UHGV virus genome: UHGV-1764584 | Reading direction: 5' to 3' (one strand) | Source of the DNA: a virus | Length of the DNA stretch: 15,232 nucleotides | In this document: positions 1 to 14,941 of the stretch, piece by piece | How positions within the stretch are numbered: position 1 is the stretch's first letter | Layout of the letters: each line of letters begins with the position of its first letter | Program-made: the position numbers and the translations under genes | The notes under the pieces: model-generated | Database searches by the model: none | What the model was told of the DNA's origin: nothing | The model's input: only the letters and a program-made list of their open reading frames with translations

Positions 1-55
<55 letters not shown>

Positions 56-183
56 CTTTGTCGGTTTACGGATAACCAGGCAGTTATCGGCCCTGACATT
101 TTTTACAGGTCGGCGAGTCTGCGTCTTCCTTCCTTCGAGGATGGCCCTAACCATATCGTCATTAAAAACAACACCACGTTCTT

Positions 184-1015: not shown

Positions 1016-1030
1016 TGTCGAGGCATCCTT

Positions 1031-1060
1031 ATACATTTATATAAATATATAATTCTATAT
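1031..1060. repeat. AT-rich box (TTTATATAAATATATAATTCTATATA), member of a dispersed repeat family
   Basis: Shares the TATATAAAT and TATAATT(A/C)TATA cores with boxes at 2248-2280, 6001-6030, 6076-6103, 6781-6812 and 11722-11752. Sits in the promoter position of the 734-1015 operon. Confidence 0.5.
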
Positions 1061-1061
1061 A

Positions 1062-1081
1062 CGGCGGGAGACGTCCCGCCG
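1062..1081 (-). terminator. GC-rich hairpin downstream of the DUF3560-like gene (possible terminator)
   Basis: Perfect 8-bp stem CGGCGGGA/TCCCGCCG with a 4-nt loop, 12 nt past the stop at 1093. The following tract is AU-rich rather than a clean U-run. Confidence 0.35.
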
Positions 1082-1092
1082 TAGGCTTACTG

Positions 1093-2160
1093 TCAGGCTT
1101 TCAATAGCGATTCTTTTAGATATCGGGCATCAGCCAGGGCGTTTGGAGTAATCTTGCGAACCCATGCATTACGGGTTGGACTCCACTTAAAGGCGCGTGA
1201 TTTAAGCAGCGAACGAATGTTTGCCTCTGGTTTGCCAGGGAAATAAAACAGGATGCGGTTATCCTCTGGATCTATCTCCATAGAAAAGCCGTCGTATTCT
1301 TCGCGCTGTGCTCCTGTTACAGACTTGACCGATTCAAGCTCCTTAATACGGCTCTGTAGTCGTTTGATTTCGGCGTTATTGTTGCTCAGTGCGTATGAAG
1401 GGAATCCGATGCGCCCACAGAAATCTCCGGCCAGTAACTCTTTGGCTTCGCTTTCTGTAAACCTGAGATCGATTAATGCAGAAAGCTGCTGTAATTGGTC
1501 TTTTTTGTATTTGCGAATGGCCTTATTTGCGGCCTTCATTTTGACGTGTGACTTCATGCAGCCTTGCAGCTTACGAAGCAACTTAAATAGCGCATCAGGA
1601 TCATCAGACGAAATTCCATTACGACCAACACCTGCGGCTTTGCTCTCGTAGTGTGATGCTTTACTTTCGCATTCAACAAACGCTTTTCTTAATAACGCAT
1701 CAGCTTTAGACAAACGGCGGCGATGGCCTTTCGCGCTATAATGGTCAACTAAAATCGGCTGGCCTAACGGGATCACATCCAACAGGTCATGCGCTCGCTT
1801 ATGCGCTACCGCACCTTCTTTTCTGGCTTTTTCTGCACGAGCAATATATCGGGCAAGACGCGCGTTCTGGCGTTCCTGATAGGTGTTTACGTAATCATCT
1901 CCGCGCTGCTGCTGTTCAAGCCATGCTTTGCGCAGATCTTCTGTTACGTCCACCAGCTCCGCAGGGATACAACCAGTTTGGGCTTCATAAGAGTAACCAT
2001 CCTCATAGATGCGCCCATCGTCTTCAACAAAGAAAAAGGTTTCGTGCTCATCGCTTTTGACCATACGACCATTAACATGGCGTAATAGGTAGCCAGTATC
2101 AGTGCTTAACAGGCTGTTAGGGTTGTTGATCCAGTCAGAAATAATTTCTTGTTTATTCAT
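1093..2160 (-). CDS. 355-aa protein, DUF3560-like (family recalled from memory), function unknown
   Basis: Long intact ORF with GGAG 8 nt upstream of the ATG. C-terminal motif FYFPGKPEANIRSLLKSRAFKWSPTRNAWVR resembles DUF3560 proteins. Highly charged K/R/E-rich helical middle region. Confidence 0.65.
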   Translation of the reverse strand: MNKQEIISDWINNPNSLLSTDTGYLLRHVNGRMVKSDEHETFFFVEDDGRIYEDGYSYEAQTGCIPAELVDVTEDLRKAWLEQQQRGDDYVNTYQERQNARLARYIARAEKARKEGAVAHKRAHDLLDVIPLGQPILVDHYSAKGHRRRLSKADALLRKAFVECESKASHYESKAAGVGRNGISSDDPDALFKLLRKLQGCMKSHVKMKAANKAIRKYKKDQLQQLSALIDLRFTESEAKELLAGDFCGRIGFPSYALSNNNAEIKRLQSRIKELESVKSVTGAQREEYDGFSMEIDPEDNRILFYFPGKPEANIRSLLKSRAFKWSPTRNAWVRKITPNALADARYLKESLLKA

Positions 2161-2166
2161 CAGATT

Positions 2167-2280
2167 TCTCCGGTTTAACCAGGGCGGGTATCGCTCGGTT
2201 TCGGGTATAACCTTAGGAAATTTTTTCCCACCTGTAAAGCACTTTTTATATAAATCTATAATTATATATTTATAGATTTT
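2167..2280 (-). promoter_or_regulatory. Copy A of a duplicated promoter/5' leader module (about 110 bp), includes RBS and AT-rich box
   Basis: Near-identical to 11643-11752 (1-2 mismatches over roughly 100 bp). In gene orientation it contains TTTACA, a 17-bp spacer, TAAGGT, and the GGAG RBS. Lies directly downstream of the Q-like gene. Confidence 0.6.
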
Positions 2281-2329
2281 CGATGTTCCCGATGTCTACA
2301 CACCATCAAAATAGCTCAAAATGACACTT

Positions 2330-2707
2330 TTACTCTCTTCGCTTTTTCAAATAGTCGACAACATACGCCCTGGCTTTTGCCAGCTTCCGGCGATACTGTC
2401 TGAGACTAAGAGAAAGGGCGTGGGCTTTATCAATATGCGGTGCATTTATGTCGAGGCCCCGAATCTCCCACGCCCCGTATTCAATTCGGACAACCAGCGC
2501 CGCAGTCTCATCAACTACCGTGAGGGCCGTCACCGCTCCCTCGATACTGGTTTCCAGTGAGTCATTTGGTGCGCCGCCCCCTCCGGTAAACTGGCAGCGC
2601 GTAACCATCATCATTTCTAACATCGACGCGAAACCGCTACGGGCGTTGCAGCCATTGCGCACCCACAGCGCCCATAGCTCAAACAAGCTATCCAGATCGC
2701 GTCTCAC
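2330..2707 (-). CDS. Q-like antitermination protein (phage 82/21-type pattern), tentative
   Basis: 125 aa and last gene of the early operon. The N-terminal LFELWALWVRNG...SGF pattern resembles the VLERWGAWAANN... start of recalled lambdoid Q-type proteins. Family assignment unverified. Confidence 0.45.
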   Translation of the reverse strand: MRRDLDSLFELWALWVRNGCNARSGFASMLEMMMVTRCQFTGGGGAPNDSLETSIEGAVTALTVVDETAALVVRIEYGAWEIRGLDINAPHIDKAHALSLSLRQYRRKLAKARAYVVDYLKKRRE

Positions 2708-2710
2708 TGT

Positions 2711-3043
2711 TCAGATCTCCCGTATCGTGACGGGATAAAGCGCCTCTACCTGCTTTTTCTTCATGATGTAGACGTCTGTTCGCACACCTTTAGTGTCGAC
2801 ACAATCAATCGTCCCATCGTCATAAAACACCATGAAATCAAGTTTATAAACGACACCACCAGGCAGATGAAAAGGCACCTGCATAAGAAACGTCACAACG
2901 CGGCCAGCTTTTCTCAGTAGCTTCAGTTCGCAGTAGTAATCAGCCTCTTTTTTGCTATCAAAAGCGATATCATCGACAACAGTTTTTTTATTGCCGTATT
3001 TGCTTTTCCTGGTCGCTGGTTTGCGAAAGCCGGTATATCTCAT
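2711..3043 (-). CDS. DUF1064-family phage protein
   Basis: The N-terminus YGNKKTVVDDIAFDSKKEADYY and the motifs YKLDFMVFYDDG and ALYP match the DUF1064 pattern common in lambdoid nin regions. Confidence 0.65.
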   Translation of the reverse strand: MRYTGFRKPATRKSKYGNKKTVVDDIAFDSKKEADYYCELKLLRKAGRVVTFLMQVPFHLPGGVVYKLDFMVFYDDGTIDCVDTKGVRTDVYIMKKKQVEALYPVTIREI

Positions 3044-3444
3044 TTGGTATCCCCTGGTACTTCACCAAGACTAAGATCAAACCCAATTTCGTCTTTAACT
3101 GACTGCGGCAACAGCTCCCACGTCTGCGCACACAAAAATTCATCGGTGCCATAACGCTCAACAAAGCGAGCACAATTACTCAGGGGAGGGTGACGAACGG
3201 CAATATGCGGAGGCACGCGCCCACCACCAGGCACAACACCGCGATGATGTGGTGCGCACAACCCAAAGCTATGGAAGTGGCAATTCTCATCAACGCTGCC
3301 GTAATCAGGATCGTGATGTAGCTCCGTCCACAGCTCTGGATTCTCAATTTCACGGCCATCAATAATGCAAGCTATGCAACCCACGTGAGTGAGCACCGCT
3401 TGTATATAAAGTTTCTCTTTCTTCGTTGGTGTACGTCCGTTCAT
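3040..3444 (-). CDS. Ref-family recombination enhancement nuclease (HNH)
   Basis: MNGRTPTKKEK...GCIACII...ELHHD...CHFH...LCAPHHRG...RHP...FVERYGTDEFL matches the recalled Ref-family pattern. ATGA overlap with the downstream gene. Confidence 0.6.
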   Translation of the reverse strand: MNGRTPTKKEKLYIQAVLTHVGCIACIIDGREIENPELWTELHHDPDYGSVDENCHFHSFGLCAPHHRGVVPGGGRVPPHIAVRHPPLSNCARFVERYGTDEFLCAQTWELLPQSVKDEIGFDLSLGEVPGDTK

Positions 3445-3677
3445 CAGCGCCCCTTACCATTGATAAAGAGGTTGAACTCGTTGATTAACTGGACATACAT
3501 GCTTCTGGCCGCGTAGTTCTTTGCCAGCTCTTTACGGGATGAGATCCCGCAAAACTCACGCAGAATCACAGAGGCCTCAGAACTGTTTGAAACGTTCTTC
3601 CCTGTTTTACTGGTCAGAAAGTGCCAGAATTGGGGATTCTGGCAATGCATCGCAGCACCGCGAACATAACTACTCAT
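3444..3677 (-). CDS. Hypothetical phage early-operon protein (77 aa)
   Basis: Intact ORF tightly coupled to its neighbours (overlaps at both ends). No family recognised. Confidence 0.45.
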   Translation of the reverse strand: MSSYVRGAAMHCQNPQFWHFLTSKTGKNVSNSSEASVILREFCGISSRKELAKNYAARSMYVQLINEFNLFINGKGR

Positions 3678-4189
3678 TGATGGCCCCCGTCATTTCTGGT
3701 GCTTTTCACCGTGCGGCTTCTTAAAAACCTGCCATCACGAACAACAGACACTTCTCGTTTACCCAACCTCATTTCACGGCGGTAACATTCAGAAAATGCC
3801 TCGTCCGGCATCATATAAATGCGACGCTTCGCCTCCGTATCCAGAAGGGAACGGCTTGGGGTTACATATAAAAACGACTCATCAATAGGGACCAAACCAC
3901 GAGCAAGAATTGCTGGCAGAATGCCAGGAAGAACGCAGAAAACAGCTCCACGATGCAGCAACATCTGGTACTCCATGACCTCCGTTATCCCCGTGACTAC
4001 TGTTACGGTGTCACGTCTGTTACGGCTGGCAACCAGTCGCTGCACACGTCCAATTTTCTGATCTACAGATAGATGTTTGCTATCGTTATCAATATGATCG
4101 ATAACAAATCCTTTAATCGTTTGATCAAGGTAGTGCACCACCTTCGATTGAATCTGGTGATTATCACCAAAGAAGGCCAGAATCATCAT
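3674..4189 (-). CDS. Hypothetical phage early-operon protein (171 aa)
   Basis: Intact ORF with ATGA overlaps to both neighbours. Possibly a nin-region DUF but not recognised with confidence. Confidence 0.45.
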   Translation of the reverse strand: MMILAFFGDNHQIQSKVVHYLDQTIKGFVIDHIDNDSKHLSVDQKIGRVQRLVASRNRRDTVTVVTGITEVMEYQMLLHRGAVFCVLPGILPAILARGLVPIDESFLYVTPSRSLLDTEAKRRIYMMPDEAFSECYRREMRLGKREVSVVRDGRFLRSRTVKSTRNDGGHQ

Positions 4190-4680
4190 TCCTCAAGCCT
4201 CCCAAGTGCTGAACGCCGGGCGTTGCTAATCTCCTTATGAATCAGCTCGATATCGCTGGAATCTTTATTCTTAAACTCCAGCATGGCAATCGCATCACGA
4301 ACCTCTGAAACGGTTACGTGTGAGTGTTTCCAGCGAGCAATGAATCGCGGACCGCGTAGATTGCAACGCTCCGCAGGCATCCCCAGCTCAGAGAAAACCG
4401 CTTTCAGCCTTGATAAGCAGTTAACAGGGAGATTCCCTTTGATCTTGTTCTGCCGAACCGATGTGCCATCGCTACGCTGGCGCTGACGTTCGGCAAAATC
4501 TGCCGCCCATTGCTGGACGTTAATCCGGCCTTCCGAATACGCCACCAGCAGCGTCAGGTTATCCGCACGAGGGAATCTCTCGAAGCGATACCAGGCACCA
4601 ATCAGTGATGACGTAAAGCCAAACTTTCTGGCAACACCAATTTGGCCTCCATTTTCGTCAACCCACTCCTGAAAGGTCAT
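4186..4680 (-). CDS. Cro/CII-like HTH DNA-binding protein with C-terminal extension, first gene of the early operon
   Basis: N-terminal GGQIGVARKFGFTSSLIGAWYRFERFPRADNLTLLVAYSEG resembles the lambda CII-type HTH. GGAG lies 9 nt upstream of the ATG. Divergent from the cI-like gene across the operator region. Confidence 0.5.
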   Translation of the reverse strand: MTFQEWVDENGGQIGVARKFGFTSSLIGAWYRFERFPRADNLTLLVAYSEGRINVQQWAADFAERQRQRSDGTSVRQNKIKGNLPVNCLSRLKAVFSELGMPAERCNLRGPRFIARWKHSHVTVSEVRDAIAMLEFKNKDSSDIELIHKEISNARRSALGRLEE

Positions 4681-4698
4681 TTAACGAACTCCAGTTAA

Positions 4699-4826
4699 AC
4701 CACAATATGTGGTATTAAAACCACATATTGTGAGTTTTTCAATGGGCGAAACAAAAAATAACCTTCTATTTGTGGTCCACCTCTCGTCTTACCATGTGAA
4801 AACCACTAAATGTGGTAATGTATAAA
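4699..4826. promoter_or_regulatory. Divergent promoter/operator region between the cro-like and cI-like genes
   Basis: Operator-like sites: O1 4699-4713 (ACCACA-ATA-TGTGGT, perfect), O2 4720-4734 (ACCACA-TAT-TGTGAG), O4 4802-4816 (ACCACT-AAA-TGTGGT). Leftward promoter TTGAAA (rc of 4737-4742), 17 bp, TTTAAT (rc of 4714-4719), with O2 in the spacer. Rightward candidate -10 TATAAA at 4821-4826. Confidence 0.55.
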
Positions 4827-4853
4827 TAACCCACCATTCACGATTGATGAGAC

Positions 4854-5510
4854 ATGAAAAGCAACGACGAGAACATCAAGAAAGAAATAGGTCTGCGCAT
4901 TCAGACTCTACGGAAACAATCCGGCATGACTGCCGGAGATCTCCAGCAAGTCACTGGAATAGGCTTAAGCACCTTGCAGAACTATGAGGCCGGATTAAGA
5001 CAACCATCTATACCTGCCATCAAGAAAATCGCGCACGCCCTGAAAGCATCAGCGCCTTATATCGCGTGCTTAACAGATAACCCGTTCCCACCCCAGAATA
5101 CTAACGCTCCTGTTATTCCTGGGCTTGTAGCTATAAAAAATGACATAGCATCGCACGCCGGAGAAAAGCCAGTGCTGGCGATAGAACAGGAGATTCTACG
5201 AAGCAAGAACATCAACCCATCGTCTCTGTCAGTTCTCCAGAGCAACGATGAGTTAATGTCACCAACAATATCCCCTGGCTCCCAAGTCCTGATTAATACA
5301 GACGATACAGAGATTCATGAGGGGATCTATGCCCTTGAAGACAGAAATGGCCTGGTTGTTTTGAGGCACTGTAGAGTCATACCGGGTGACAATGCTGTTA
5401 TGCTGTCAACCGAAAGGGATGCTGAAATGAACACTAAGCATCTGAATAACGAGGAATTTAAGCGTTATAAAGTTCTTGGCCGCGTAGTTAGTGTTGTCAA
5501 CTGGTTATGA
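4854..5510 (+). CDS. cI-like repressor (XRE-type HTH plus LexA/S24-like C-terminal domain)
   Basis: N-terminal HTH (IGLRIQTLRKQSGMTAGDLQQVTGIGLSTLQNYEAG). C-terminal domain shows the S24-like pattern (GIYALEDRNGLVVLR...VLGRVVSV). Confidence 0.8.
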   Translation: MKSNDENIKKEIGLRIQTLRKQSGMTAGDLQQVTGIGLSTLQNYEAGLRQPSIPAIKKIAHALKASAPYIACLTDNPFPPQNTNAPVIPGLVAIKNDIASHAGEKPVLAIEQEILRSKNINPSSLSVLQSNDELMSPTISPGSQVLINTDDTEIHEGIYALEDRNGLVVLRHCRVIPGDNAVMLSTERDAEMNTKHLNNEEFKRYKVLGRVVSVVNWL

Positions 5511-5517
5511 TACACAG

Positions 5518-5533
5518 CACGGCGAAAGCCGTG
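5518..5533 (+). terminator. Short hairpin after the cI-like gene (weak terminator/attenuator candidate)
   Basis: CACGGC-GAAA-GCCGTG, a 6-bp stem with a GAAA loop, followed by CATTTCTACGCTC. Confidence 0.3.
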
Positions 5534-5551
5534 CATTTCTACGCTCAAAAA

Positions 5552-5591
5552 AACCACATTTTGTGGTTTTGACAACATGTAAAAGTATAAA
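5552..5591 (+). promoter_or_regulatory. Operator O5 plus promoter elements upstream of gene 5603-5977
   Basis: O5 at 5552-5568 is a perfect 7-bp-arm palindrome AACCACA-TTT-TGTGGTT. TTGACA at 5569-5574 and TATAAA at 5586-5591 follow. Exact promoter geometry unresolved. Confidence 0.5.
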
Positions 5592-5602
5592 AGAGGCTAC
5601 GC

Positions 5603-5977
5603 ATGGAATTACATACAGCCAATAAAAACGAAACTCTGATCACTGCTGGAATCGAAATCCAAGCGTTGAACATAGCGATTGAGTGTATGTTATGCCAACT
5701 CATTGATAATGAGAAAGATATCGACTGGATAGAATCTATCCTTCATCTGGCATCAGAACAAAAAGTCTGCCTCAAAACGGCCTTACAATACGATGTGCCA
5801 GCGGTATCGAAGCTGTGCCAGTCATTGATGGCATATAACAGGGCTATTATTTCTGTATGCCTCATGATTCTCGATGAAAACCCCCCTCTTAGCGACCGCT
5901 CAGAAGCTGCTCTAACCCTCTCACGTAAACAGCGACAGCTAGCAAATCAACTGATATCAACGATAGCTGACCTCTGA
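5603..5977 (+). CDS. Hypothetical 124-aa protein downstream of the cI-like gene
   Basis: Intact ORF with AAGAGG 6 nt upstream of the ATG, followed by a hairpin at 5981-6000. Predicted mostly helical; no family recognised. Confidence 0.5.
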   Translation: MELHTANKNETLITAGIEIQALNIAIECMLCQLIDNEKDIDWIESILHLASEQKVCLKTALQYDVPAVSKLCQSLMAYNRAIISVCLMILDENPPLSDRSEAALTLSRKQRQLANQLISTIADL

Positions 5978-5980
5978 CTG

Positions 5981-6000
5981 CAAGCGGGCTAACGCCCGCT
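5981..6000 (+). terminator. Hairpin terminator candidate after gene 5603-5977
   Basis: AAGCGGGC-TAAC-GCCCGCTT, an 8-bp stem 4 nt past the stop, followed by an AU-rich tract. Confidence 0.45.
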
Positions 6001-6103
6001 TATATGATTATAGATTTATATAATTATATAAAACGCTTTTCATCCGCCAAAAAGTTGGTTATGCTTACCTCGTTCTATAAATATAGATTTATAGAATTAT
6101 ATA
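6001..6103. repeat. Two AT-rich boxes upstream of parA (candidate par operator/centromere-like repeats)
   Basis: TATAGATTTATA at 6008-6019 and 6082-6093, each followed by (T)AATTATATAA. The same core recurs at 6798-6809. Confidence 0.5.
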
Positions 6104-6127
6104 ACCAAACACATGGAGTCTCGACAA

Positions 6128-6781
6128 ATGACTATCTCTGTAGGTATTTTCAACGGAAAAGGCGGCGTAACCAAATCAACAATTGCCCGTGCTTTAGCAG
6201 TTGCTTATGCAAAGGCTGGCTGGAATGTATGCCTGATCGATATGGATGTGCTTAACGGAACGGTAACGCGTTGGGTACAACGCAGAATGGCCAACAATAT
6301 CGAACCAGCAATCGCGGCGCAGCCGTGCGGCACACCATCACAAGTCCAGAAAATCATCGAATCAGAAGTATACGACCTGGTTATCGTCGATGGCGGTGCC
6401 TACGCATCTGAATCAGTACCGAAGCTCTCTGAATTTCTGGATATGGTTATTTTGCCAACCAGATTCTCTACCGATGACCTGGAAACCACCGTTAACACAG
6501 CTCACGGCATCGTTAAAAAGGGTGTACCAATCAAGAAAATTTGCATGGTGTTTTCCGGCGCGGCTGAAAACGAAGCTGACTATATTGAAGCCCAAGAGTA
6601 CCTGGCTAATACGCCATACTTTGTTGTCGATAAGTACATTCCCCACAAGCCAGCTCTGAGCAAAGCTCAGGATAAGGGCTTAAGCCTCATTGAGTGCTCA
6701 TACGTTGCGCCACGCAAAAAGGCAGACGACGTTATTCAGGGGATTATCAACCAGCTTGAGGCTCTGACTACTGCCGCGTAA
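6128..6781 (+). CDS. parA: ParA-family partition ATPase (small ParF-type)
   Basis: Deviant Walker A GKGGVTKST, Walker A' LIDMD, and VIVDGGAYAS hydrophobic motif. Start chosen at ATG 6128 (GGAG at 6115-6118, 9-nt spacing); the ORF track's 6113 start is 5 codons longer. Confidence 0.8.
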   Translation: MTISVGIFNGKGGVTKSTIARALAVAYAKAGWNVCLIDMDVLNGTVTRWVQRRMANNIEPAIAAQPCGTPSQVQKIIESEVYDLVIVDGGAYASESVPKLSEFLDMVILPTRFSTDDLETTVNTAHGIVKKGVPIKKICMVFSGAAENEADYIEAQEYLANTPYFVVDKYIPHKPALSKAQDKGLSLIECSYVAPRKKADDVIQGIINQLEALTTAA

Positions 6782-6812
6782 TATATAATTATAGTTTTAT
6801 AGATTTATATAA
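6781..6812. repeat. AT-rich box between parA and the parG-like gene
   Basis: ATATATAATTATAGTTTTATAGATTTATATAA, carrying the same TATAGATTTATATAA core as 6008-6022. Confidence 0.5.
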
Positions 6813-6824
6813 GAGGGGATACAC

Positions 6825-7073
6825 ATGGCCGCACCATCAAAACCACCAAAGAAGAACAGCAAAGGCGTACCGCCATCGATCGAACAACCGCAGGTTTTCG
6901 ACCCGACTGAAACGCCAACCAGAACCAAATCAGGTGGGGCACAAATGGCGTTTAACGTCGACCCTGAATTTAAACGCGAGTACAAAACGTTCGCCAGCTC
7001 AATGGATATGTCATTGAAAGAAGTGCTGACAAAATCTTTTGAGTTACTCAAGGCTCAATACAACCAGAAGTAA
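6825..7073 (+). CDS. ParG-like ribbon-helix-helix partition/centromere-binding protein (82 aa)
   Basis: Directly downstream of parA with an AAGAGGGG RBS. Basic, Pro-rich, likely disordered N-terminal tail, then MAFNVDPEFKREYKTFASSMDMSLKEVLTKSFELLKAQ, a strand-helix-helix pattern comparable to TP228 ParG. Confidence 0.55.
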   Translation: MAAPSKPPKKNSKGVPPSIEQPQVFDPTETPTRTKSGGAQMAFNVDPEFKREYKTFASSMDMSLKEVLTKSFELLKAQYNQK

Positions 7074-7135
7074 GAGAAGGTGACGGCCTCCAGCGCCAAC
7101 TGTTGGCCGTCGCGACACAACAAGGGGAATTTGTT

Positions 7136-7285
7136 ATGTCCGAGCAACAATATACACGGTTACTGAAAACTCGTCTAACCGACCTCAAACGGCTGCAAGC
7201 TGGTCGCTTATTTGCCCTGCTATCCACCAGGCCAGAATGGGTACGTGAAGCAGTTCTGAAAGGCTTAATGCGCTCCAGCGTTTAA
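7136..7285 (+). CDS. Small hypothetical ORF (49 aa)
   Basis: ATG with a GGGGAA RBS, basic helical peptide. No homology recognised; could be non-coding. Confidence 0.25.
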   Translation: MSEQQYTRLLKTRLTDLKRLQAGRLFALLSTRPEWVREAVLKGLMRSSV

Positions 7286-7294
7286 ATTCAACCA

Positions 7295-7318
7295 TAAAAA
7301 AGGCCCCCGAAGGGGCCT
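7295..7318 (-). terminator. Rho-independent terminator oriented for minus-strand transcription
   Basis: Stem AGGCCCC/GGGGCCT (7301-7307 with 7312-7318) and loop CGAA. The A-run at 7295-7300 gives a U-run after the hairpin on the minus-strand RNA. Confidence 0.55.
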
Positions 7319-7323
7319 AATCG

Positions 7324-7446
7324 CTACTTGCTGCTAATGTTTATCGTCACATTCAGAGCGTTATCAGTAATCTTCCAACCCTCCCCATGTGGCGTAAACA
7401 AAGCTCCAGTAACAACGATAAAAATACACATACAGTATTTTTTCAT
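7324..7446 (-). CDS. Candidate 40-aa hydrophobic peptide (MKKYCMCIFIVVTGALFTPHGEGWKITDNALNVTINISSK)
   Basis: ATG at 7446 with AAGGG 7 nt upstream; the SD sits in a GGCC...GGCC hairpin. N-terminal hydrophobic segment. Ends just before the terminator at 7295-7318. The ORF track's 60-aa version begins at a non-ATG codon upstream. Confidence 0.35.
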   Translation of the reverse strand: MKKYCMCIFIVVTGALFTPHGEGWKITDNALNVTINISSK

Positions 7447-7677
7447 TGTATGGCCCTTACAGGCCGTTTCACGACATCCCCACCGACGAAAACAACGCGA
7501 GAGCAAGCACGGCTGCTTGTGCTTGCATGTACGGCAACAGGAAATCCTCCCCTAAAGTCGGTGCCCGGGTGCGAATCGGCGGGAAGGTCCACAGGTATTT
7601 TACGATTATTTTAAGATTAGTAATAGGAAAGAAATTAAACGAAAAAAACAGTTTATTTTCACAAAATCAGTAACCTA

Positions 7678-7733
7678 CCCACAATCTGTGAGTTTGCTGA
7701 CACAACAAGAACCACAATTTTTTGATGTATAAT
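7678..7733 (+). promoter_or_regulatory. Operator-like sites and -10 element upstream of the candidate sRNA / antirepressor operon
   Basis: O6 at 7678-7692 (CCCACA-ATC-TGTGAG, close to O2) and half-site O7 at 7711-7716. TATAAT at 7728-7733 is preceded directly by TG. Confidence 0.45.
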
Positions 7734-7738
7734 AGTGG

Positions 7739-7870
7739 ACTATTATTACCTTTTGAGTAAAATCAATTTGCTGCTTGTGCTTGCGTGGTTGTTTATACAA
7801 CAACGTAATGCTGAAAGGACCGCGAATCCGATCAGCACGAAAGAACCGTCCTCAATAGGGCGGTTTTTTT
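7739..7870 (+). ncRNA. Candidate small RNA / terminated leader (about 130 nt)
   Basis: Runs from the TATAAT promoter to a terminator at 7844-7870 (stem AACCGUCC/GGGCGGUU with one G-U pair, loop UCAAUA, then U7). Positions 7770-7787 are complementary to the minus-strand RNA at 7512-7529. Internal hairpin GTTGTT-TATAC-AACAAC at 7788-7804. Confidence 0.35.
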
Positions 7871-8017
7871 GTTTCTGCCTACCAATAAACCCACGCTATG
7901 TGGTTGTCTCTGTTAAAATCCCGCCGTATTGACATGAATGCGCCATTGGTGGACACTTTCCGAGCCGTAGCAAAATCTACGGTCGGGATTGGAACCCCGT
8001 AGACACAATGGCGCATA

Positions 8018-8040
8018 CCGCGTTAGCGGTTTTTTTATGC
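8018..8040 (+). terminator. Second short terminator-like hairpin in the antirepressor leader
   Basis: ACCGC-GTTA-GCGGT followed by T7. A GATTGGAACC 10-mer is repeated at 7988-7997 and 8150-8159. Confidence 0.3.
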
Positions 8041-8202
8041 GTAAAGCACTGCTACACCCAAATTATGGTGGGGCGTGCGGGGGAGTCGTAAGACTCGCCG
8101 GTTCGTCATTGTGTCCGGTAGTTCCAACCCTGCACGTCTCACCACCCAATGATTGGAACCTGACGGTGGTGAGTATCCTTAACCTTTAAGGGAATCATCA
8201 CA

Positions 8203-8394
8203 ATGACAAACCTACCCCATGACTATTACGTCAACCTCGTAAAGATCCTTCTCAAGAAAGCCTCATACGCCGATAAATTACGCCTGGCTGAAATCATCGA
8301 GCGCGAAGCTATGCGCATCGCCAGCAACGATAACGCTGTTTCTGACGCAAAAATCTCCCTCGTAACCAAAGTTGTTATGGGAGGTGCAAAATGA
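8203..8394 (+). CDS. Small protein (63 aa) translationally coupled to the antirepressor gene
   Basis: AAGGGAA RBS; its stop overlaps the antirepressor ATG (ATGA at 8391). Occupies the position that icd has in P1 immI. No sequence family recognised. Confidence 0.5.
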   Translation: MTNLPHDYYVNLVKILLKKASYADKLRLAEIIEREAMRIASNDNAVSDAKISLVTKVVMGGAK

Positions 8395-9542
8395 AAACGC
8401 TTCCGACCGTTAACACCCTACAGCCTATCCTGCATAATCAGATTCCAGTAATCACAACTGAGCTACTCGCCCGCCTTTATGGAACAGAAGCAATCCGTAT
8501 ACAGCAAAATCACCATGAAAATAAAACTCGGTTCATTGAGGGGAAGCACTTCTTTAAAGCTGTTGGTGATGAACTCAAAAATTTGCGACTAGTTTTAAAC
8601 GAGTCACAAAATGAGGTGCAAATTTCCCCCAAAACTCGCTCTCTCATCCTCTGGACAGAACGCGGGGCTGCACGTCACGCCAAAATGCTTGAAACTAACC
8701 AAGCGTGGGATGTGTTCGAACGGCTGGAAGACTGCTATTTCAACCAGAACGCGCAAACGGCCGCGACCGTAACCGTCTCACCAAACAATGCTCGTGAGGT
8801 TGTCGATACGCTCAACGCCAAACCGATGTTTTACATTAAAGTGTGCAACAACGAGCCACTCACAACCTCAGCCGATGTTGCCCAGGCATTCAGCACCACA
8901 AACAATTCCATCGTTATGGCCATCGATGCGTTACGCATTCCTCGCACAGCTGCGGCGCGTCATTTCTTTAAAGAGCAACGACCGTTGGAAGGAAGCGACC
9001 GCGAAATAACAATCTATCGCATGACAAAAGACGGATTTACCTTGCTCATGGAAAGTATCGACGGTCCAGGCGTGAAGGATATCAAGCTGGCCTACATTGA
9101 AGCCTTTAACGCTATCAGCAGCGTGTTAAAAACACAGTACGAGCGCGATCTGGCTAAACGACTGTACCAGGAAAAAACGATTATCCGCGCGGCAACAGAG
9201 CATAATCGGCTATTAACGGAACCGAACTACAGGAAGGAACTAATCAAGGAGTTTGACAAGGCAACAGGGAAAACCAAAGCGGCGCTAAGTCTGCCAGCAA
9301 TGACTCAGGAAAATGTGATATCAGCCTTACTTCTTGATCTGCTCAGAAACGCCAGAGCACTTATCAGCTTTGACGAAAACCTGAATCCTCAGCTCAAGCT
9401 ACTACCACCGACAGGCAAAGTAGTCGACCAGGCTGATCACAACAGCATACTCAGCGTACTGGATGCAAACCTGCCAGCCAGGACACTACAGGATCTGATA
9501 AAAACATGTGCTGATAAGCTGGCACAGAAAAGCAGACCATAA
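8391..9542 (+). CDS. Phage antirepressor (N-terminal ORF6N domain plus Rha/AntA-like domain)
   Basis: N-terminal IPVITTELLARLYGTEAIRIQQNHHENKTRFIEGKHFFK...LILWTERGAARHAKMLETNQAWDVFERLEDCYF is a classic ORF6N pattern. Middle PLTTSADVAQAFSTTNNSIVMAIDAL is Rha/AntA-like. Confidence 0.8.
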   Translation: MKTLPTVNTLQPILHNQIPVITTELLARLYGTEAIRIQQNHHENKTRFIEGKHFFKAVGDELKNLRLVLNESQNEVQISPKTRSLILWTERGAARHAKMLETNQAWDVFERLEDCYFNQNAQTAATVTVSPNNAREVVDTLNAKPMFYIKVCNNEPLTTSADVAQAFSTTNNSIVMAIDALRIPRTAAARHFFKEQRPLEGSDREITIYRMTKDGFTLLMESIDGPGVKDIKLAYIEAFNAISSVLKTQYERDLAKRLYQEKTIIRAATEHNRLLTEPNYRKELIKEFDKATGKTKAALSLPAMTQENVISALLLDLLRNARALISFDENLNPQLKLLPPTGKVVDQADHNSILSVLDANLPARTLQDLIKTCADKLAQKSRP

Positions 9543-9546
9543 CTAC

Positions 9547-9579
9547 AAGGGGCTACGGCCCCTTACTCTTTTCTCTCTT
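9547..9579 (+). terminator. Rho-independent terminator after the antirepressor gene
   Basis: Stem AAGGGGC/GCCCCTT (9547-9553 with 9558-9564), loop TACG, followed by the U-rich ACTCTTTTCTCTCTT. Confidence 0.55.
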
Positions 9580-10279
9580 ATCAACACCAGAGACTTTCTG
9601 AAAATCCTTTCGAATAGCGTCAGCGTCACGCGCCAAGCCCATACTCGAACGTGTCGCCATATGACGAAAATGATCAACTGCCGGAAACAAAGAAATAATG
9701 GACCCAATAGCTTGCAGCAAACTCGCTTTTCTACGCATCATAATTCCACCATAACCGATAACCACCCTTCAGACACAACCCCCCCTCCCCCCATACAGGG
9801 TGCCCTTTACCGGAGTTCCGGCCCCTTCTCAAAAGCATCAAAAAAAGCTCGAGATCGAGTACCGGAACTCATGCCACCAGATAGCTCCACATCGTTTCCA
9901 ATGCTTCGCCGCCGTGTGCGCCCTGTGGCCCACAATCATGCCATTGGTCGTCTGATATACCTTCTTCTGCTCATAGAGCACAGGCGAGTTGTCGCACTCC
10001 TGCCTTTCTCAGACTCGACTTAGTTTAGATCGCTGTTCCTGGCTTGCGTCAGCACACTTTCCCCTTGTACGCATACCCGCGCGCCACTTCGCCCAAAAAC
10101 ACCGAACCCAACGAAGTGGCAAAGACAACGACGCGAGCGTGAGTCTGAAATGGGCACCAGTAAAAAAGGGGTTGCAGGCGCAAAAAGATTTGATTATCTT
10201 TAGACGCAAGAAAGCCGCCCCAATCAAGAGGTGTCTTTTTAAATCCAGCCTACCAAGCAAGATTTAAATTTCAGACTGA

Positions 10280-10310
10280 AAACCGCCCGGCAAGGCGGTT
10301 TTTGTCTTTC
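10280..10310. terminator. Terminator hairpin, usable in both directions
   Basis: 8-bp stem AAACCGCC/GGCGGTTT with loop CGGCAA. A T-run follows on the plus strand and an A-run precedes it. Lies about 50 nt downstream of the minus-strand XRE gene stop. Confidence 0.5.
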
Positions 10311-10351
10311 TGGCGCTTACATTACACCACCATAAAACGATCCGTAAAGGA

Positions 10352-10624
10352 TCATTTGATCCCTTGTTCCAATTCTGCCGACACTTTAACCTTTTCCCAT
10401 ACAAGGGTTTGCAGCCTTAACAGAATCGCATCTTTATCAAGGTGTGAAAGATCCTTAACCATATCGTCAAACGACAGAACGCGAATGGCCATCTCAATGA
10501 CCCTCGGCGGCTCCCCCTTCTCATATCGCTTATATGTAGCCAACGATATCCCAAACTCTTCGGCTGCTCGCTCCTGCGTCCAGTTCATCCCACGACGCCA
10601 TAATTTCAATTCGTAACCCGTCAT
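10352..10624 (-). CDS. XRE-family HTH transcriptional regulator (90 aa)
   Basis: MTGYELKLWRRGMNWTQERAAEEFGISLATYKRYEKGE is a canonical XRE HTH. Divergent from gene 10726-11151. Confidence 0.7.
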   Translation of the reverse strand: MTGYELKLWRRGMNWTQERAAEEFGISLATYKRYEKGEPPRVIEMAIRVLSFDDMVKDLSHLDKDAILLRLQTLVWEKVKVSAELEQGIK

Positions 10625-10725
10625 TACATCCTCTACCTTTCCCTAGATATTCAATAAATTAGACATAGCCACTCACGACAAAATAAGATGTATTAACAAT
10701 CCAATCTTTAGGCTTTAGGTAAAAA

Positions 10726-11151
10726 ATGAGTTCATCTGCTTTTGTCACCGTGGTCACTGGTGTAAGTGTTTTTGTTCTAGGCCAACTCATCGTCAAAGGA
10801 GCTATTGAGCCTTACATTTCATTCAGGGAACAACTAGGGAAAATATCCAATCTGTTATTATGTAACCAAGCAAAAATAGTGAATCCTGGCTCGAACTTAA
10901 AGCCAGAAATCATTCATGATCTAAAAGATTCCGCAGCACAGTTAATGGCGAAATATTCCACTTTACCTTTCTATATCAAAAAGTTACATATCGGCTTTCG
11001 TCTTGTTCCATCAGCCACCGAGATTCTTGGGGCAGCTCAAAATTTGAACTATATAGCGTCAATACATGAAGGTAAGACTGGGGAGAATCCATCTAAGCAT
11101 CTCGAAGAGATTGGCCATATGCTCAAAATACCAACTACCTATTCAAGCTAA
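10726..11151 (+). CDS. Hypothetical membrane-anchored protein (141 aa) in an AT-rich segment
   Basis: AGGT RBS; N-terminal hydrophobic helix (AFVTVVTGVSVFVLGQLIV) followed by a soluble domain. Visibly lower GC than its flanks. No family recognised. Confidence 0.5.
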   Translation: MSSSAFVTVVTGVSVFVLGQLIVKGAIEPYISFREQLGKISNLLLCNQAKIVNPGSNLKPEIIHDLKDSAAQLMAKYSTLPFYIKKLHIGFRLVPSATEILGAAQNLNYIASIHEGKTGENPSKHLEEIGHMLKIPTTYSS

Positions 11152-11219
11152 CCCAATGTAAGTTATCGGCTTGCCCCACAATAAGTTATCTATCTTCAAA
11201 CGCCCCCTATATTAACACT

Positions 11220-11246
11220 CGCAAAGTGTCAAAATGACACTTTGCG
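11220..11246. promoter_or_regulatory. Perfect 12-bp-arm palindrome (CGCAAAGTGTCA-AAA-TGACACTTTGCG) between convergent genes
   Basis: Seen directly. Fifteen nucleotides of it (TCAAAATGACACTTT) recur exactly at 2316-2330 at the 3' end of the Q-like gene. Could be a terminator hairpin or a dimer operator. Confidence 0.45.
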
Positions 11247-11254
11247 CATTGTGT

Positions 11255-11635
11255 TTACTTAACGAGGAATAAAAATGGTTTATTGTTCGGCGGTGTAATC
11301 GGGGCTGGCTCGCTTTTGCTCATGCGATCAGTGTACCAGGCCAACTCCTTGTCAAAGTAAGCCTGATTAAAATAGGCCATGAATGTAGTTTCAAATCCAT
11401 AACGACCGCTAATACGCAGCATCTGATTGCCGTTCTCTGTTTCCAGATATACCTGGGCACGTTCCTGATTCTCCTTCAGCCAGGTTAAAGCCTCATCGCA
11501 TGAGGACACACGATACTCATCATCGTAGCAGTCATCGATGCGGCTTGAGGAAGAACGGCAAATCACGCCAACAGAACCAGCCAGGATAGTTTGAATTTTA
11601 AGGAAAGCGTTTTTGCGGATTTTAATCATGCTCAT
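11255..11635 (-). CDS. Hypothetical 126-aa protein with signal-peptide-like N-terminus
   Basis: Intact ORF with GGAG 8 nt upstream. N-terminal basic then hydrophobic stretch (KIRKNAFLKIQTILAGSVGVIC), three Cys in the following 25 residues. Driven by copy B of the duplicated leader module. Confidence 0.55.
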   Translation of the reverse strand: MSMIKIRKNAFLKIQTILAGSVGVICRSSSSRIDDCYDDEYRVSSCDEALTWLKENQERAQVYLETENGNQMLRISGRYGFETTFMAYFNQAYFDKELAWYTDRMSKSEPAPITPPNNKPFLFLVK

Positions 11636-11642
11636 CGGGTTA

Positions 11643-11752
11643 TCTCCGGTTTAACCAGGGCGGGTATCGCTCGGTTTCGGGTATAACCTTAGGAATTTTT
11701 TTCCCACCTGTAAAGCACTTTTTATATAAATATATAATTATATAATTCTATG
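11643..11752 (-). promoter_or_regulatory. Copy B of the duplicated promoter/5' leader module
   Basis: Near-identical to 2167-2280, including RBS, TTTACA-17 bp-TAAGGT and the AT-rich box. Confidence 0.6.
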
Positions 11753-11783
11753 AGCACAAAAAAGCCCCTTTGCAACAGGGGCT
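11753..11783 (-). terminator. Rho-independent terminator after the antitoxin gene
   Basis: Stem AAGCCCCT/AGGGGCTT (11761-11768 with 11776-11783), loop TTGCAAC. The A6 run at 11755-11760 gives a U-run on the minus-strand RNA. Confidence 0.6.
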
Positions 11784-13906: not shown

Positions 13907-14755
13907 TTAATGTTGGAGTGATTTCCAGGTCTTTCTTAGCCTGTTATAACGCTGCTCAACGAGGGAGCGTAAATATGCAAGGTCAGCACCAGGATACATG
14001 CCATCAGCAAATTCCTGGCTAACCTCTCTAGTGATTTGATGGCGAAGTTCGGCCTCTCCCTTTTCCTGAACAAGACGCGCAGCTCTCTCCGCTGCTTTCT
14101 GTTTTGCCTTTATCTCTCTGGCCGTCTTCCTCTGACGCCATACATTCTCCATCTGCTCCTGAATAACAATACGCTTATAATCAGCCTCCGTTATCGCTTT
14201 TTTAAGCCGTTCGCTATTCTTCGCATTGAAGTAATTAAGTTTCTGGCTAACCGCACGTCTCCATGCTTGTTCAGTAATACCAACTGTTTCCAGCAGTTGA
14301 TCACGAATCTCGATTTTCGCTGGCCAATACTGTTTATTCACCCGATCCCAGCGACGTTCATAATCAATAAAACCTAACTCTTTCAGTTGCGACAACGCCC
14401 TTGTACAGCGCGTTATAGACTTGTTCCCAGCTTCGGATACGGTAGACAGGCCGCAAAAATCAGCCAACGCCTCAGCACTGGCCAGAACCCGCTTAGAAAT
14501 GATGTTTACATGGTGCAAAATCGCAGCAATCACAGCATTAATCGCCCGACGACGATGCTCGTTTATCCGGCGTTTCCGCTCTGACGGTTGATTAACGTAG
14601 AACGCAACCTCACACGTAAGATCACGACCATTAATGCGCTGTAAAGCATCAGATAACACCAGCGGCAGCTTGTGCGTATGGTGCTTTGGAGGCTGGAACT
14701 CCGGCGACAAATTACAAACGTAAGCTGAACGTAGAGACGGCATTGGTCTATCCAT
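13907..14755 (-). CDS. repA: IncFII-family replication initiator RepA1
   Basis: RRRAINAVIAAILHH...VLASAEALADFCGLSTVSEAGNKSITRCTRALSQLKELGFIDYERRWD aligns by eye with R100/R1 RepA1. Start set at the internal Met (MDRPMPS), giving 282 aa against about 285 for RepA1; the open frame extends to 14899. Confidence 0.8.
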   Translation of the reverse strand: MDRPMPSLRSAYVCNLSPEFQPPKHHTHKLPLVLSDALQRINGRDLTCEVAFYVNQPSERKRRINEHRRRAINAVIAAILHHVNIISKRVLASAEALADFCGLSTVSEAGNKSITRCTRALSQLKELGFIDYERRWDRVNKQYWPAKIEIRDQLLETVGITEQAWRRAVSQKLNYFNAKNSERLKKAITEADYKRIVIQEQMENVWRQRKTAREIKAKQKAAERAARLVQEKGEAELRHQITREVSQEFADGMYPGADLAYLRSLVEQRYNRLRKTWKSLQH

Positions 14756-14765
14756 ATGTTCGCTC

Positions 14766-14882
14766 TTGCGTCCACGGAAAACCAACGTATAATGGGAGTT
14801 GTCGAGGCGCCCATGGTTAGTTGTTGGTTTTCCTTTCCGTGGATGTCGCAAGAAGCCCGCAGATTTATCTGCGGGCTTTTTG
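14766..14882 (+). ncRNA. CopA-like antisense RNA with its promoter, opposite the repA leader
   Basis: -35 TTGCGT (14766-14771), 16 bp, -10 TATAAT (14788-14793). Terminator stem AAGCCCGCAGA/TCTGCGGGCTT (14853-14878) followed by TTTTTGTTT. The RNA would be about 83 nt, complementary to the region 45-130 nt upstream of the repA start. Confidence 0.55.
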
Positions 14883-14913
14883 TTTCCATATCTGGTCACT
14901 TTTCAACCAGACA

Positions 14914-14941
14914 CCCACAATCATAACCACGTTACGTGGTT
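14914..14941. promoter_or_regulatory. Palindromic operator candidate in the repA promoter region
   Basis: AACCACG-T-TACGTGGTT (14925-14941, 8-bp arms) preceded by CCCACAATC (14914-14922), identical to the left 9 nt of O6. On the minus strand it lies just upstream of a TATGAT -10 candidate. Confidence 0.4.

Follow-up and report, generated by a model that had tools for sequence, protein, structure and literature searches.

We found that a 15,232-nucleotide stretch of viral DNA (UHGV virus genome UHGV-1764584; the whole stretch is called the window below) carries six arrays of an 8-bp repeat, three of them at parA and the small gene behind it, and three in front of unrelated genes. It is likely that the 82-aa product of that small gene, a candidate ribbon-helix-helix (RHH) partition protein, coats these arrays, which would then act as the operator and centromere of parA and as the operators of a small regulon; this account is built on the sequence and on analogy with characterized plasmids. 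The window is 98–99% identical to circular Escherichia coli plasmids of ∼48 kb (CP099184, and NZ_LT985302 of ECOR39) and, at the same level, to the Yersinia phages vB_YpM_39/41/44. Complete records of this element encode an IncFII-type repA, a higBA-like toxin–antitoxin pair and a ParA gene, and also a full contractile-tail (myovirus-type) virion module, holins and a terminase. Since plasmid maintenance genes and a complete virion module coexist in the full records, the element is a phage-plasmid, of which the window holds the maintenance and early half, including part of a minus-strand early operon. A pSLy3-type identity was first suspected and then dropped, since the pSLy3 group is SSU5-related (10.1101/2025.08.29.673033), and the element is left untyped here.

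Each of the six sites (S1 to S6; Table 1) consists of exactly four tandem head-to-tail 8-bp units (32 bp in total) with the consensus WTATAKAW, and the edges of the arrays are sharp, with GC-rich flanks. The unit TTATATAA is its own reverse complement, and TTATAGAT and ATCTATAA are one asymmetric unit in its two orientations, which gives the arrays a polarity; the arrays therefore mix direct and inverted units. The central dinucleotide is TA in 24 out of 24 units. A repeat finder puts all six sites in one family with an internal spacing of 8 bp, and a 32-nt degenerate pattern allowing up to three mismatches matches these six sites only, versus no match in 200 shuffles that preserved dinucleotides. 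Arrays of mixed orientation escape a simple period-8 self-similarity detector, and position-weight matrices of the unit were used instead; the matrix scan of the window gave no further array beyond the six. The complete plasmid NZ_LT985302 has eight arrays (0 expected). All arrays are intergenic, and none lies within the ∼25-kb virion module of the complete element. Of the two arrays outside the window, one is upstream of a tRNA-Met gene and the other closely follows an MT-A70 methylase gene. In locus L003 (we name loci by our own handles), an array at 25387-25418 lies ∼140 bp upstream of this phage-plasmid-encoded tRNA-Met (anticodon CAT, 25556-25631). There is no array in the window at repA or directly upstream of higBA, and a role as replication iterons was rejected, as no array is near repA. 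The original prediction had placed all six sites within 0–3 bases of our coordinates. The three cores it listed are overlapping views of a single 4 × 8-bp structure; this structure and the two arrays outside the window had been overlooked.

Table 1. Positions of the arrays, putative promoters and genes discussed in the text (window coordinates)
Feature	Position	Strand	Details
Array S1	1029-1060	-	units in gene direction ATATAGAA TTATATAT TTATATAA ATGTATAA
DUF3560 gene	1093-2160	-	
Promoter/leader cassette after S2	2161-2245	-	putative promoter: -35 TTTACA (2238-2233), 17-bp spacer, -10 TAAGGT (2215-2210)
Array S2	2246-2277	-	units ATCTATAA ATATATAA TTATAGAT TTATATAA
ACCAC-N5-GTGGT sites	4699-4713, 4802-4816, 5553-5567, 7890-7904, 14926-14940		
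cI-like S24 repressor	4854-5510		
Array S3	6000-6031	+	units TTATATGA TTATAGAT TTATATAA TTATATAA
Putative parA promoter	6037-6065	+	TTTTCA (6037-6042), 17-bp spacer, TATGCT (6060-6065); manual sequence reading
Array S4	6073-6104	+	units TTCTATAA ATATAGAT TTATAGAA TTATATAA
parA	6128-6781	+	217-aa Walker-type ATPase, no N-terminal DNA-binding domain (type Ib size)
Array S5	6781-6812	+	units ATATATAA TTATAGTT TTATAGAT TTATATAA
Candidate ParG-like centromere-binding protein, 82 aa	6825-7073	+	basic N-terminal motif KPPKKNSKGVPP, disordered linker, C-terminal strand-helix-helix
Second cassette copy, after S6	11636-11721	-	putative promoter: -35 TTTACA (11714-11709), 17 bp, -10 TAAGGT (11691-11686); conserved leader, ATG 11635
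Array S6	11722-11753	-	units TCATAGAA TTATATAA TTATATAT TTATATAA
repA	13907-14899		

The arrays are placed in one of two ways, either upstream of a -35-like hexamer or abutting a ribosome-binding site, and their polarity tracks the direction of the gene. S2, S3, S6 and the eighth array (outside the window) stop 5–7 bp before the -35-like hexamer of a putative promoter, and S1, S4 and S5 abut ribosome-binding sites. All promoters reported here are manual readings backed by conservation. At parA both placements are combined: S3, which begins right behind the orf124 terminator hairpin, stops 5 bp short of the putative -35 hexamer, transcription is predicted to start near 6072 (the base preceding S4), and the end of S4 is 9 nt from the parA Shine–Dalgarno (SD) sequence. 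The putative core promoter is thus sandwiched between one array of each type, S3 covering about -72 to -41 and S4 about +1 to +32 of the predicted transcript. The same layout (array, TTTACA, 17 bp, one of TAAGCT/TAAGAT/TATGCT/TATTCT, array) is found in the related loci L009, L010, L013, L015 and L016. S5 sits between the parA stop codon and the SD (GAGGGG) of the gene encoding the 82-aa protein. Arrays had been claimed on both sides of this gene pair; in fact two are upstream of parA, one is between the two genes and none is downstream of the pair.

Each of the dispersed arrays looks like a copy of one half of the parA control region. S2, S6 and the eighth array are each the first part of a duplicated cassette of ∼120 nt (array, TTTACA-17-TAAGGT, conserved leader, SD and ATG), which fronts three different genes (DUF3560, orf126 and a short open reading frame (ORF)). 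S2 ends 7 bp upstream of the -35 hexamer of its cassette, whose conserved leader ends with AAACCGGAGAAATCTG immediately ahead of the ATG at 2160-2158; S6, located directly behind the higBA terminator (11784-11762), is followed after 7 bp by the cassette promoter of orf126 (11255-11635). These two copies form a 108-nt repeat (2167-2274 vs 11643-11750; 96% identical) that spans array and cassette, and the third copy is outside the window (L003 26522-26640). A homologue of the cassette is found three times in the Serratia element p2 (L016 27634-27750, 29408-29525 and 37070-37187), each preceded by an array. The 5' leader of the cassette has no conserved RNA fold in our test (-3.4 kcal/mol, one covarying pair). 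S1, on the other hand, resembles S4: it comes after the hairpin behind the DUF3560 gene and directly adjoins the SD/start (GGATGCCTCGACAATG, ATG at 1015) of a gene for a 93-aa MarR-like winged-helix protein, and S1 and S4 are each followed by the string GGAKYCTCGACAATG at the translation start (1012-1029 and 6105-6130). In Serratia (L016), parA and the S1-like gene likewise share an initiation string after the array (38092-38107 and 33009-33023), and one Serratia array abuts GGACGTCTCGACAATG. It appears that the S1/S4 array was copied together with its ribosome-binding site as a single module.

The arrays are AT-rich, they occupy the UP-element position of four promoters, a terminator hairpin often precedes them, and one cassette accounts for S2, S6 and the eighth array. 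All this would agree with arrays that act without any protein, i.e. as UP-element-like AT-rich DNA, -10-rich sequence, terminator tails or AU-rich translation enhancers spread by cassette duplication. We consider this very improbable: generic AT-rich DNA would not be expected to keep a strict 8-bp phase, a count of exactly four units and sharp edges; S1, S3, S4 and S5 are outside the duplicated cassette; one unit is common to all arrays of a lineage although the flanks diverge; and units that contain G and C (TTAGCGAA, TTAACGAA) occupy equivalent positions in some lineages.

Comparison of related elements shows that the arrays are kept while their surroundings change. The par region was found in 58 plasmid records, and a 48.5-kb plasmid of E. 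coli ATCC 25922 (NZ_CP009073.1) is a copy of the phage-plasmid with the same par locus. Over the 58 plasmids, S5 has four units in 55, six in NZ_CP032259, seven in NZ_LT985302 and a span shorter by 1 nt in NZ_CP117657; the number of units shifts in whole 8-bp steps. For S4 we compared the relatives from Salmonella and Citrobacter (82-aa protein ∼90% identical) and one relative with 79% identity: S4 is 81–91% identical in these relatives, whose 41-bp parA promoter spacer is only 39–49% identical, and in all of them the arrays hold their position while the flanks drift. S3 has two to four units in relatives. The array between parA and the RHH gene is also present in L010, L015 and L016, and there is none in L009, L011, L012 or L013.

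More distant relatives, whose protein is 37–48% identical, keep the two arrays around the parA promoter but use a different unit (TTAAAGAT, TTAACGAA, TTAGCGAA or TTATACAT). The par unit is TTAAAKAW in L009, L010, L013 and Serratia p2, TTAAAGAA in L015, WTAACGAW in L014 (a conjugative plasmid), TTAGCGAW in L012 and WWATACAW in L011. The units of these lineages differ at one or two positions, so that cross-scans with lineage-specific matrices were not discriminating, and we counted central dinucleotides: in Serratia p2 these are AA/TT in 28 out of 33 units and TA in none. The predicted DNA-facing strand of the protein varies as well (QMAFNV, PLNFNV, AMNFNV, SKNFKV, PMNFKV, DLNFKV and LLTFNI): a TATA core is accompanied by A or T at position 42, TAA/TAG cores by N42, and, in two lineages, CG by K44, a covariation drawn from about seven lineages. 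The dispersed arrays of three divergent phage-plasmid lineages (L009, L015 and Serratia) match the par unit of their own lineage: L009 has eight arrays within 14 kb, L015 has five within 11 kb, and the complete Serratia element (46.8 kb) has eight (0 expected, none in virion genes). Both types of placement recur in Serratia p2 despite its different unit, and within a lineage nothing in unit, length or polarity distinguishes a dispersed array from a par array. Most simply, one par-encoded protein would read all arrays, and their dispersal would be a trait that this phage-plasmid lineage has conserved. The core of the original prediction, with the boxes as sites of the RHH partner, was contradicted by none of our computational tests, and the unit common to par and dispersed arrays supports it. 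In the conjugative plasmid L014, which has the ParA/RHH pair and no phage genes (orf124 included), arrays were found only at par in the 20 kb examined.

Whole elements diverge together, so covariation alone cannot single out the RHH protein, and the dispersed arrays might be bound by another co-inherited protein, e.g. a member of the orf124 family (encoded between cI and parA) or the MarR-like protein encoded downstream of S1, with the RHH protein acting at par only or nowhere. The distribution of orf124 agrees with such a role: homologues are present in every phage-plasmid lineage with dispersed arrays and absent from L014, which has no dispersal. Still, L014 has arrays flanking parA without orf124 or a MarR-like gene, orf124 has no DNA-binding signature, and tandem 8-bp units in mixed orientation suit RHH dimers (PMC3130281) and not a winged-helix dimer. 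Together with the likeness of dispersed and par arrays in each lineage, this makes a different binder quite unlikely in our judgement. The cI-like repressor is also an unlikely array binder, because it appears to have its own palindrome family at the cI/early promoter region (see below).

The ParA protein matches the Pfam CbiA/ParA/MipZ families over residues 5–186 and is ParA-like according to PHROG; it has no helix-turn-helix (HTH) domain. Its matches to PDB sequences are weak and include ParF (4dzz, E = 3e-4), which scores below ArsA and other P-loop ATPases. The gene family of the 82-aa protein is found directly behind a gene for a ParA of 213–218 aa in nine out of nine loci examined. The 82-aa protein, which has no ParB-type domain in Pfam, is assigned to PHROG 6024, a family of unannotated function; its close homologues are at least 79% identical, and an exhaustive profile search collected 92 clusters of proteins of roughly 80 aa. 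The family shares an N-terminal MAxxxKPPKKxxKGxPP, a variable linker, and a C-terminal LNFKV-xxEFxREFKxFA-xxxDMSMxELLxxxFExYK; in the 82-aa protein the C-terminal part consists of MAFNV followed by helices at residues 47–59 and 62–81. The AlphaFold (AF2) model of the monomer has the same two helices, disordered residues 1–39 and a predicted local distance difference test score (pLDDT) of 66, and it resembles an RHH monomer whose strand has no partner.

Among 50 remote homologues, 19 match RHH_10 in Pfam (E ≤ 0.1) and four match ParG (best E-value 2.7e-4), and none matches Omega_Repress at the same threshold. A comparison of the family with ParG by hhalign gives a probability of 76% and E = 2e-5; the aligned part of ParG is the one also covered by the PDB match described below. 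No other RHH protein was detected in the window. These sequence comparisons support a ParG-like RHH partner of a type Ib ParA as the probable functional class of the 82-aa protein, and it may be a remote ParG relative missed by current annotation. The original prediction of a ParG-like RHH protein in a type Ib par system is backed by the RHH-type matches of the family, by the size and domain of ParA and by the 8-bp period, and not by a ParG match of the protein itself in Pfam. A small ORF (7103-7285, plus strand; MSEQQY..., 60 aa from TTG 7103 or 49 aa from ATG 7137) follows the gene of the 82-aa protein, and related small ORFs trail its homologue in L010, L013 and L015; it has no family match and may be a third gene of the par operon. 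In L009 and L011, an S24-peptidase-like gene behind the RHH gene is preceded by a near-consensus LexA box (TACTGGATAAATAAACAGTA and TACTGTATATATAACCAGTA, respectively; L009 10365-10384 and L011 about 4787-4806), with a dispersed array just upstream of the LexA box, which looks like an SOS-controlled gene beside the partition regulon.

Besides the co-divergence of whole elements, several observations weigh against binding of the arrays by the RHH protein or against their role at promoters. The 82-aa protein itself has no match in Pfam at E ≤ 0.01 (and hence none to ParG, PF09274). The best PDB match of the family profile is ParG of TP228 (1p94), over the RHH region, at E = 0.24 only, and a profile of close homologues alone has no match in PDB. 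A Foldseek search of the AF2 monomer against PDB found no fold match; this says nothing about the fold, since the dimer is needed to form the strand and the pLDDT is low. The agreement between strand and unit is imperfect: L015 has NFKV but a TTAAAG core as in the NFNV lineages. Consensus promoter scans around S1/S2, S3–S5 and S6 gave no promoter in the direction of the genes, and S1 and S5 have no recognizable promoter at all; the six promoters claimed originally are therefore reduced to plausible sigma-70 promoters at parA (one for S3 and S4 together) and at the S2 and S6 cassettes. The spacer of the cassette promoter carries an inverted repeat (GGAAA-AAA-TTTCC here, TAGGAAAATATTTCCTA in Salmonella and TAGGACTAAAAGTCCTA in Serratia), which suggests a second regulator. 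Finally, the literature searched for the phage name and for phage-plasmid, ParG and RHH regulons contains no description of the arrays or the protein of this element.

In the mechanism we propose, one dimer would bind each 8-bp unit, and four dimers would cooperatively coat a 32-bp array, as ParG does on OF and parH and omega on its heptads. Binding to S3 and S4 around the parA core promoter would lead to autoregulation (repression of parA), and S3, S4 and S5 together could nucleate the partition complex, in which the basic N-terminal tail of the protein would stimulate ParA. The S3-type arrays (S2, S6 and one outside the window) and the S4-type array (S1) are found before unrelated genes and would be copies of the two halves of the parA control region. 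Through the dispersed arrays the partition protein would control DUF3560, orf126, the winged helix-turn-helix (wHTH) operon and the genes close to the tRNA and the methylase, which would tie maintenance and accessory genes to plasmid copy number. For binding upstream of a -35 hexamer, both repression (e.g. by blocking an UP-element-like contact) and activation are conceivable. The near-universal array length of four units supports the model, because omega needs at least four contiguous repeats to activate ParA (PMC9499535).

The same length, being the ParA-activating minimum of the omega system, would equally fit arrays that are only dispersed centromeres, forming several partition complexes or a single bridged one as at the sop sites of N15, without meaningful effects on the neighbouring genes. 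Scattered centromere sites are known in other partition systems (review PMC5016525), and S1 and S5, with no recognizable promoter, would pose no difficulty. But a pure centromere needs no fixed spot, and here four arrays stop 5–7 bp before a -35 hexamer, three abut ribosome-binding sites and the polarity follows the genes, with both placements found again in Serratia p2 around another unit; in TP228 and pSM19035, moreover, arrays serve as operator and centromere alike (PMC3130281, PMC9499535). We therefore regard a purely centromeric function as unlikely. A regulatory role is favoured over a centromere role alone, because placement and polarity relative to genes are fixed, and with this the choice between regulon and dispersed centromeres, left open in the original prediction, leans to regulation. 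By analogy with these two plasmids, the roles would not be exclusive, and the arrays may double as extra centromere-like sites.

Among known systems, the closest in anatomy appears to be ParF/ParG of TP228. ParG binds with one dimer per ACTC box, the boxes being separated by 4-bp AT-rich spacers in an 8-bp period and in mixed orientation; the operator, OF, has eight boxes and the centromere, parH, has 12, and either can serve as a centromere (PMC3130281). Both systems combine a small Walker-type ParA with a small RHH protein (predicted here) that has a flexible N-terminal tail, both have direct and inverted units in an 8-bp period, and the two-array layout at parA is comparable with the upstream array parH plus the promoter-overlapping OF, which mediates autorepression of the operon in TP228 (PMC3130281). 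The differences are substantial: sequence similarity is marginal, the unit is TTATAKAW instead of ACTC plus spacer, arrays have four units instead of eight and 12, and the par arrays are split by the core promoter instead of adjacent. The phage-plasmid also has a third array between the two genes and five more elsewhere. We know of no description of dispersed extra arrays for TP228.

In function, the closest system appears to be omega of pSM19035 (inc18, Firmicutes), an RHH protein that likewise binds contiguous short repeats of mixed orientation (binding is predicted in our case) and is both a partition adaptor and a global regulator acting through dispersed promoter arrays (PMC9499535, PMC4627068); here several arrays are by putative promoters, par included. 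Arrays of 7–10 heptads overlap the copS, delta and omega promoters (PMC9499535), and omega contacts RNA polymerase (PMC4627068). One array is found between the ParA and RHH genes in both systems. There is, however, no detectable homology, the period is 7 bp instead of 8 bp, and the arrays have 7–10 repeats instead of four. The targets differ too: copy-number control and toxin–antitoxin genes for omega, and here, as putative targets, DUF3560, orf126, the wHTH operon, the tRNA region and the gene after the methylase. By sequence the par system of the phage-plasmid is a member of neither the ParG nor the omega family.

The phage-plasmid N15 also has dispersed sites: as Grigoriev and Lobocka in 2001 and Ravin and Lane in 1999, both cited in the review PMC5016525, are reported to have found, its partition sites are scattered in the genome and not clustered at the par operon. 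N15 has a type Ia SopA/SopB system (an HTH ParB) with single inverted repeats and no known site beside the operon, whereas the present system is of type Ib/RHH, with tandem 8-bp arrays both at the operon and elsewhere. KorB of the IncP-1 plasmids RK2/RP4 has scattered sites, is a global repressor and uses one site as a centromere (review PMC5016525); it differs in being a ParB-family HTH protein that binds single 13-bp palindromes and can act at a distance, compared with an 82-aa RHH candidate and tandem arrays beside promoters. N15 SopB and KorB, both HTH proteins of the ParB family, had been offered as models; they are logical analogues only, and omega is closer (PMC9499535). What would be new here is a set of dispersed operators for an RHH partition protein of a Gram-negative phage-plasmid, with short four-unit modules, two placements and lineage-specific units.

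Phage-plasmids run a plasmid programme (replication, partition, addiction and accessory genes) inside an otherwise silenced phage genome. To our knowledge, the wiring between the phage and plasmid programmes is known for a few models only (e.g. P1 and N15). In the case described here, the putative operator of the partition adaptor has been copied to about five other places, and this layout has survived at least three switches of recognition sequence. If the proposed regulon is confirmed, the logic of an omega-type partition protein acting as a global regulator would reach beyond Firmicute resistance plasmids and take in Gram-negative phage-plasmids; PHROG 6024 (∼90 clusters), whose proteins are at present annotated as hypothetical, would receive a function; and a natural series of RHH proteins paired with 8-bp units would become available for the DNA specificity of strand residues. 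The element is common in E. coli (the 58 plasmid records) and present in the reference strain ATCC 25922, which makes it readily testable.

A broader version of this idea, which we hold to be rather doubtful, is that the RHH protein is a master regulator of plasmid-state genes across the enterobacterial phage-plasmid lineage. The four-unit arrays would then be portable regulatory modules of two types, descended from the two halves of the parA control region and copied to places before accessory genes inside repressor-controlled phage operons. Copy number could be sensed, because the protein would be autoregulated and its sites multiply with the genome, and titration during lytic growth would free the regulon. 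This would link partition, gene dosage and the lysis–lysogeny state.

A second dispersed family in the window is the palindrome ACCAC-N5-GTGGT, found at five sites versus 0.23 expected. Two of the sites are in the divergent cI/early promoter region and a third is downstream of cI; of the other two, one is upstream of the isrK/C4 RNAs and one lies just ahead of repA. The palindromes are probably operators of the cI-like repressor, and if so the repressor also touches the immI-like module and the replication gene. We rejected the arrays as cI operators, as this separate palindrome marks the cI/early promoter region.

The gene of the 82-aa protein is followed by a P1 immI-like block and then by higBA and repA. 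Within this block, Rfam matches above the gathering score were found for ryfA (7296-7592, minus strand), isrK (7964-8036, plus strand) and C4 antisense RNA (8061-8149, plus strand), followed by an antirepressor/Rha-like gene (8391-9542, plus strand); together they look like a secondary immunity module of the P1/P7 immI type. At the other end, the first 55–56 bases of the window (1-56) are 98–100% identical to several otherwise unrelated Escherichia and Yersinia phage records, and close phage-plasmid relatives align to the window only from base 56 or from base 366-371 on, which points to a mosaic junction at the left edge of the window.

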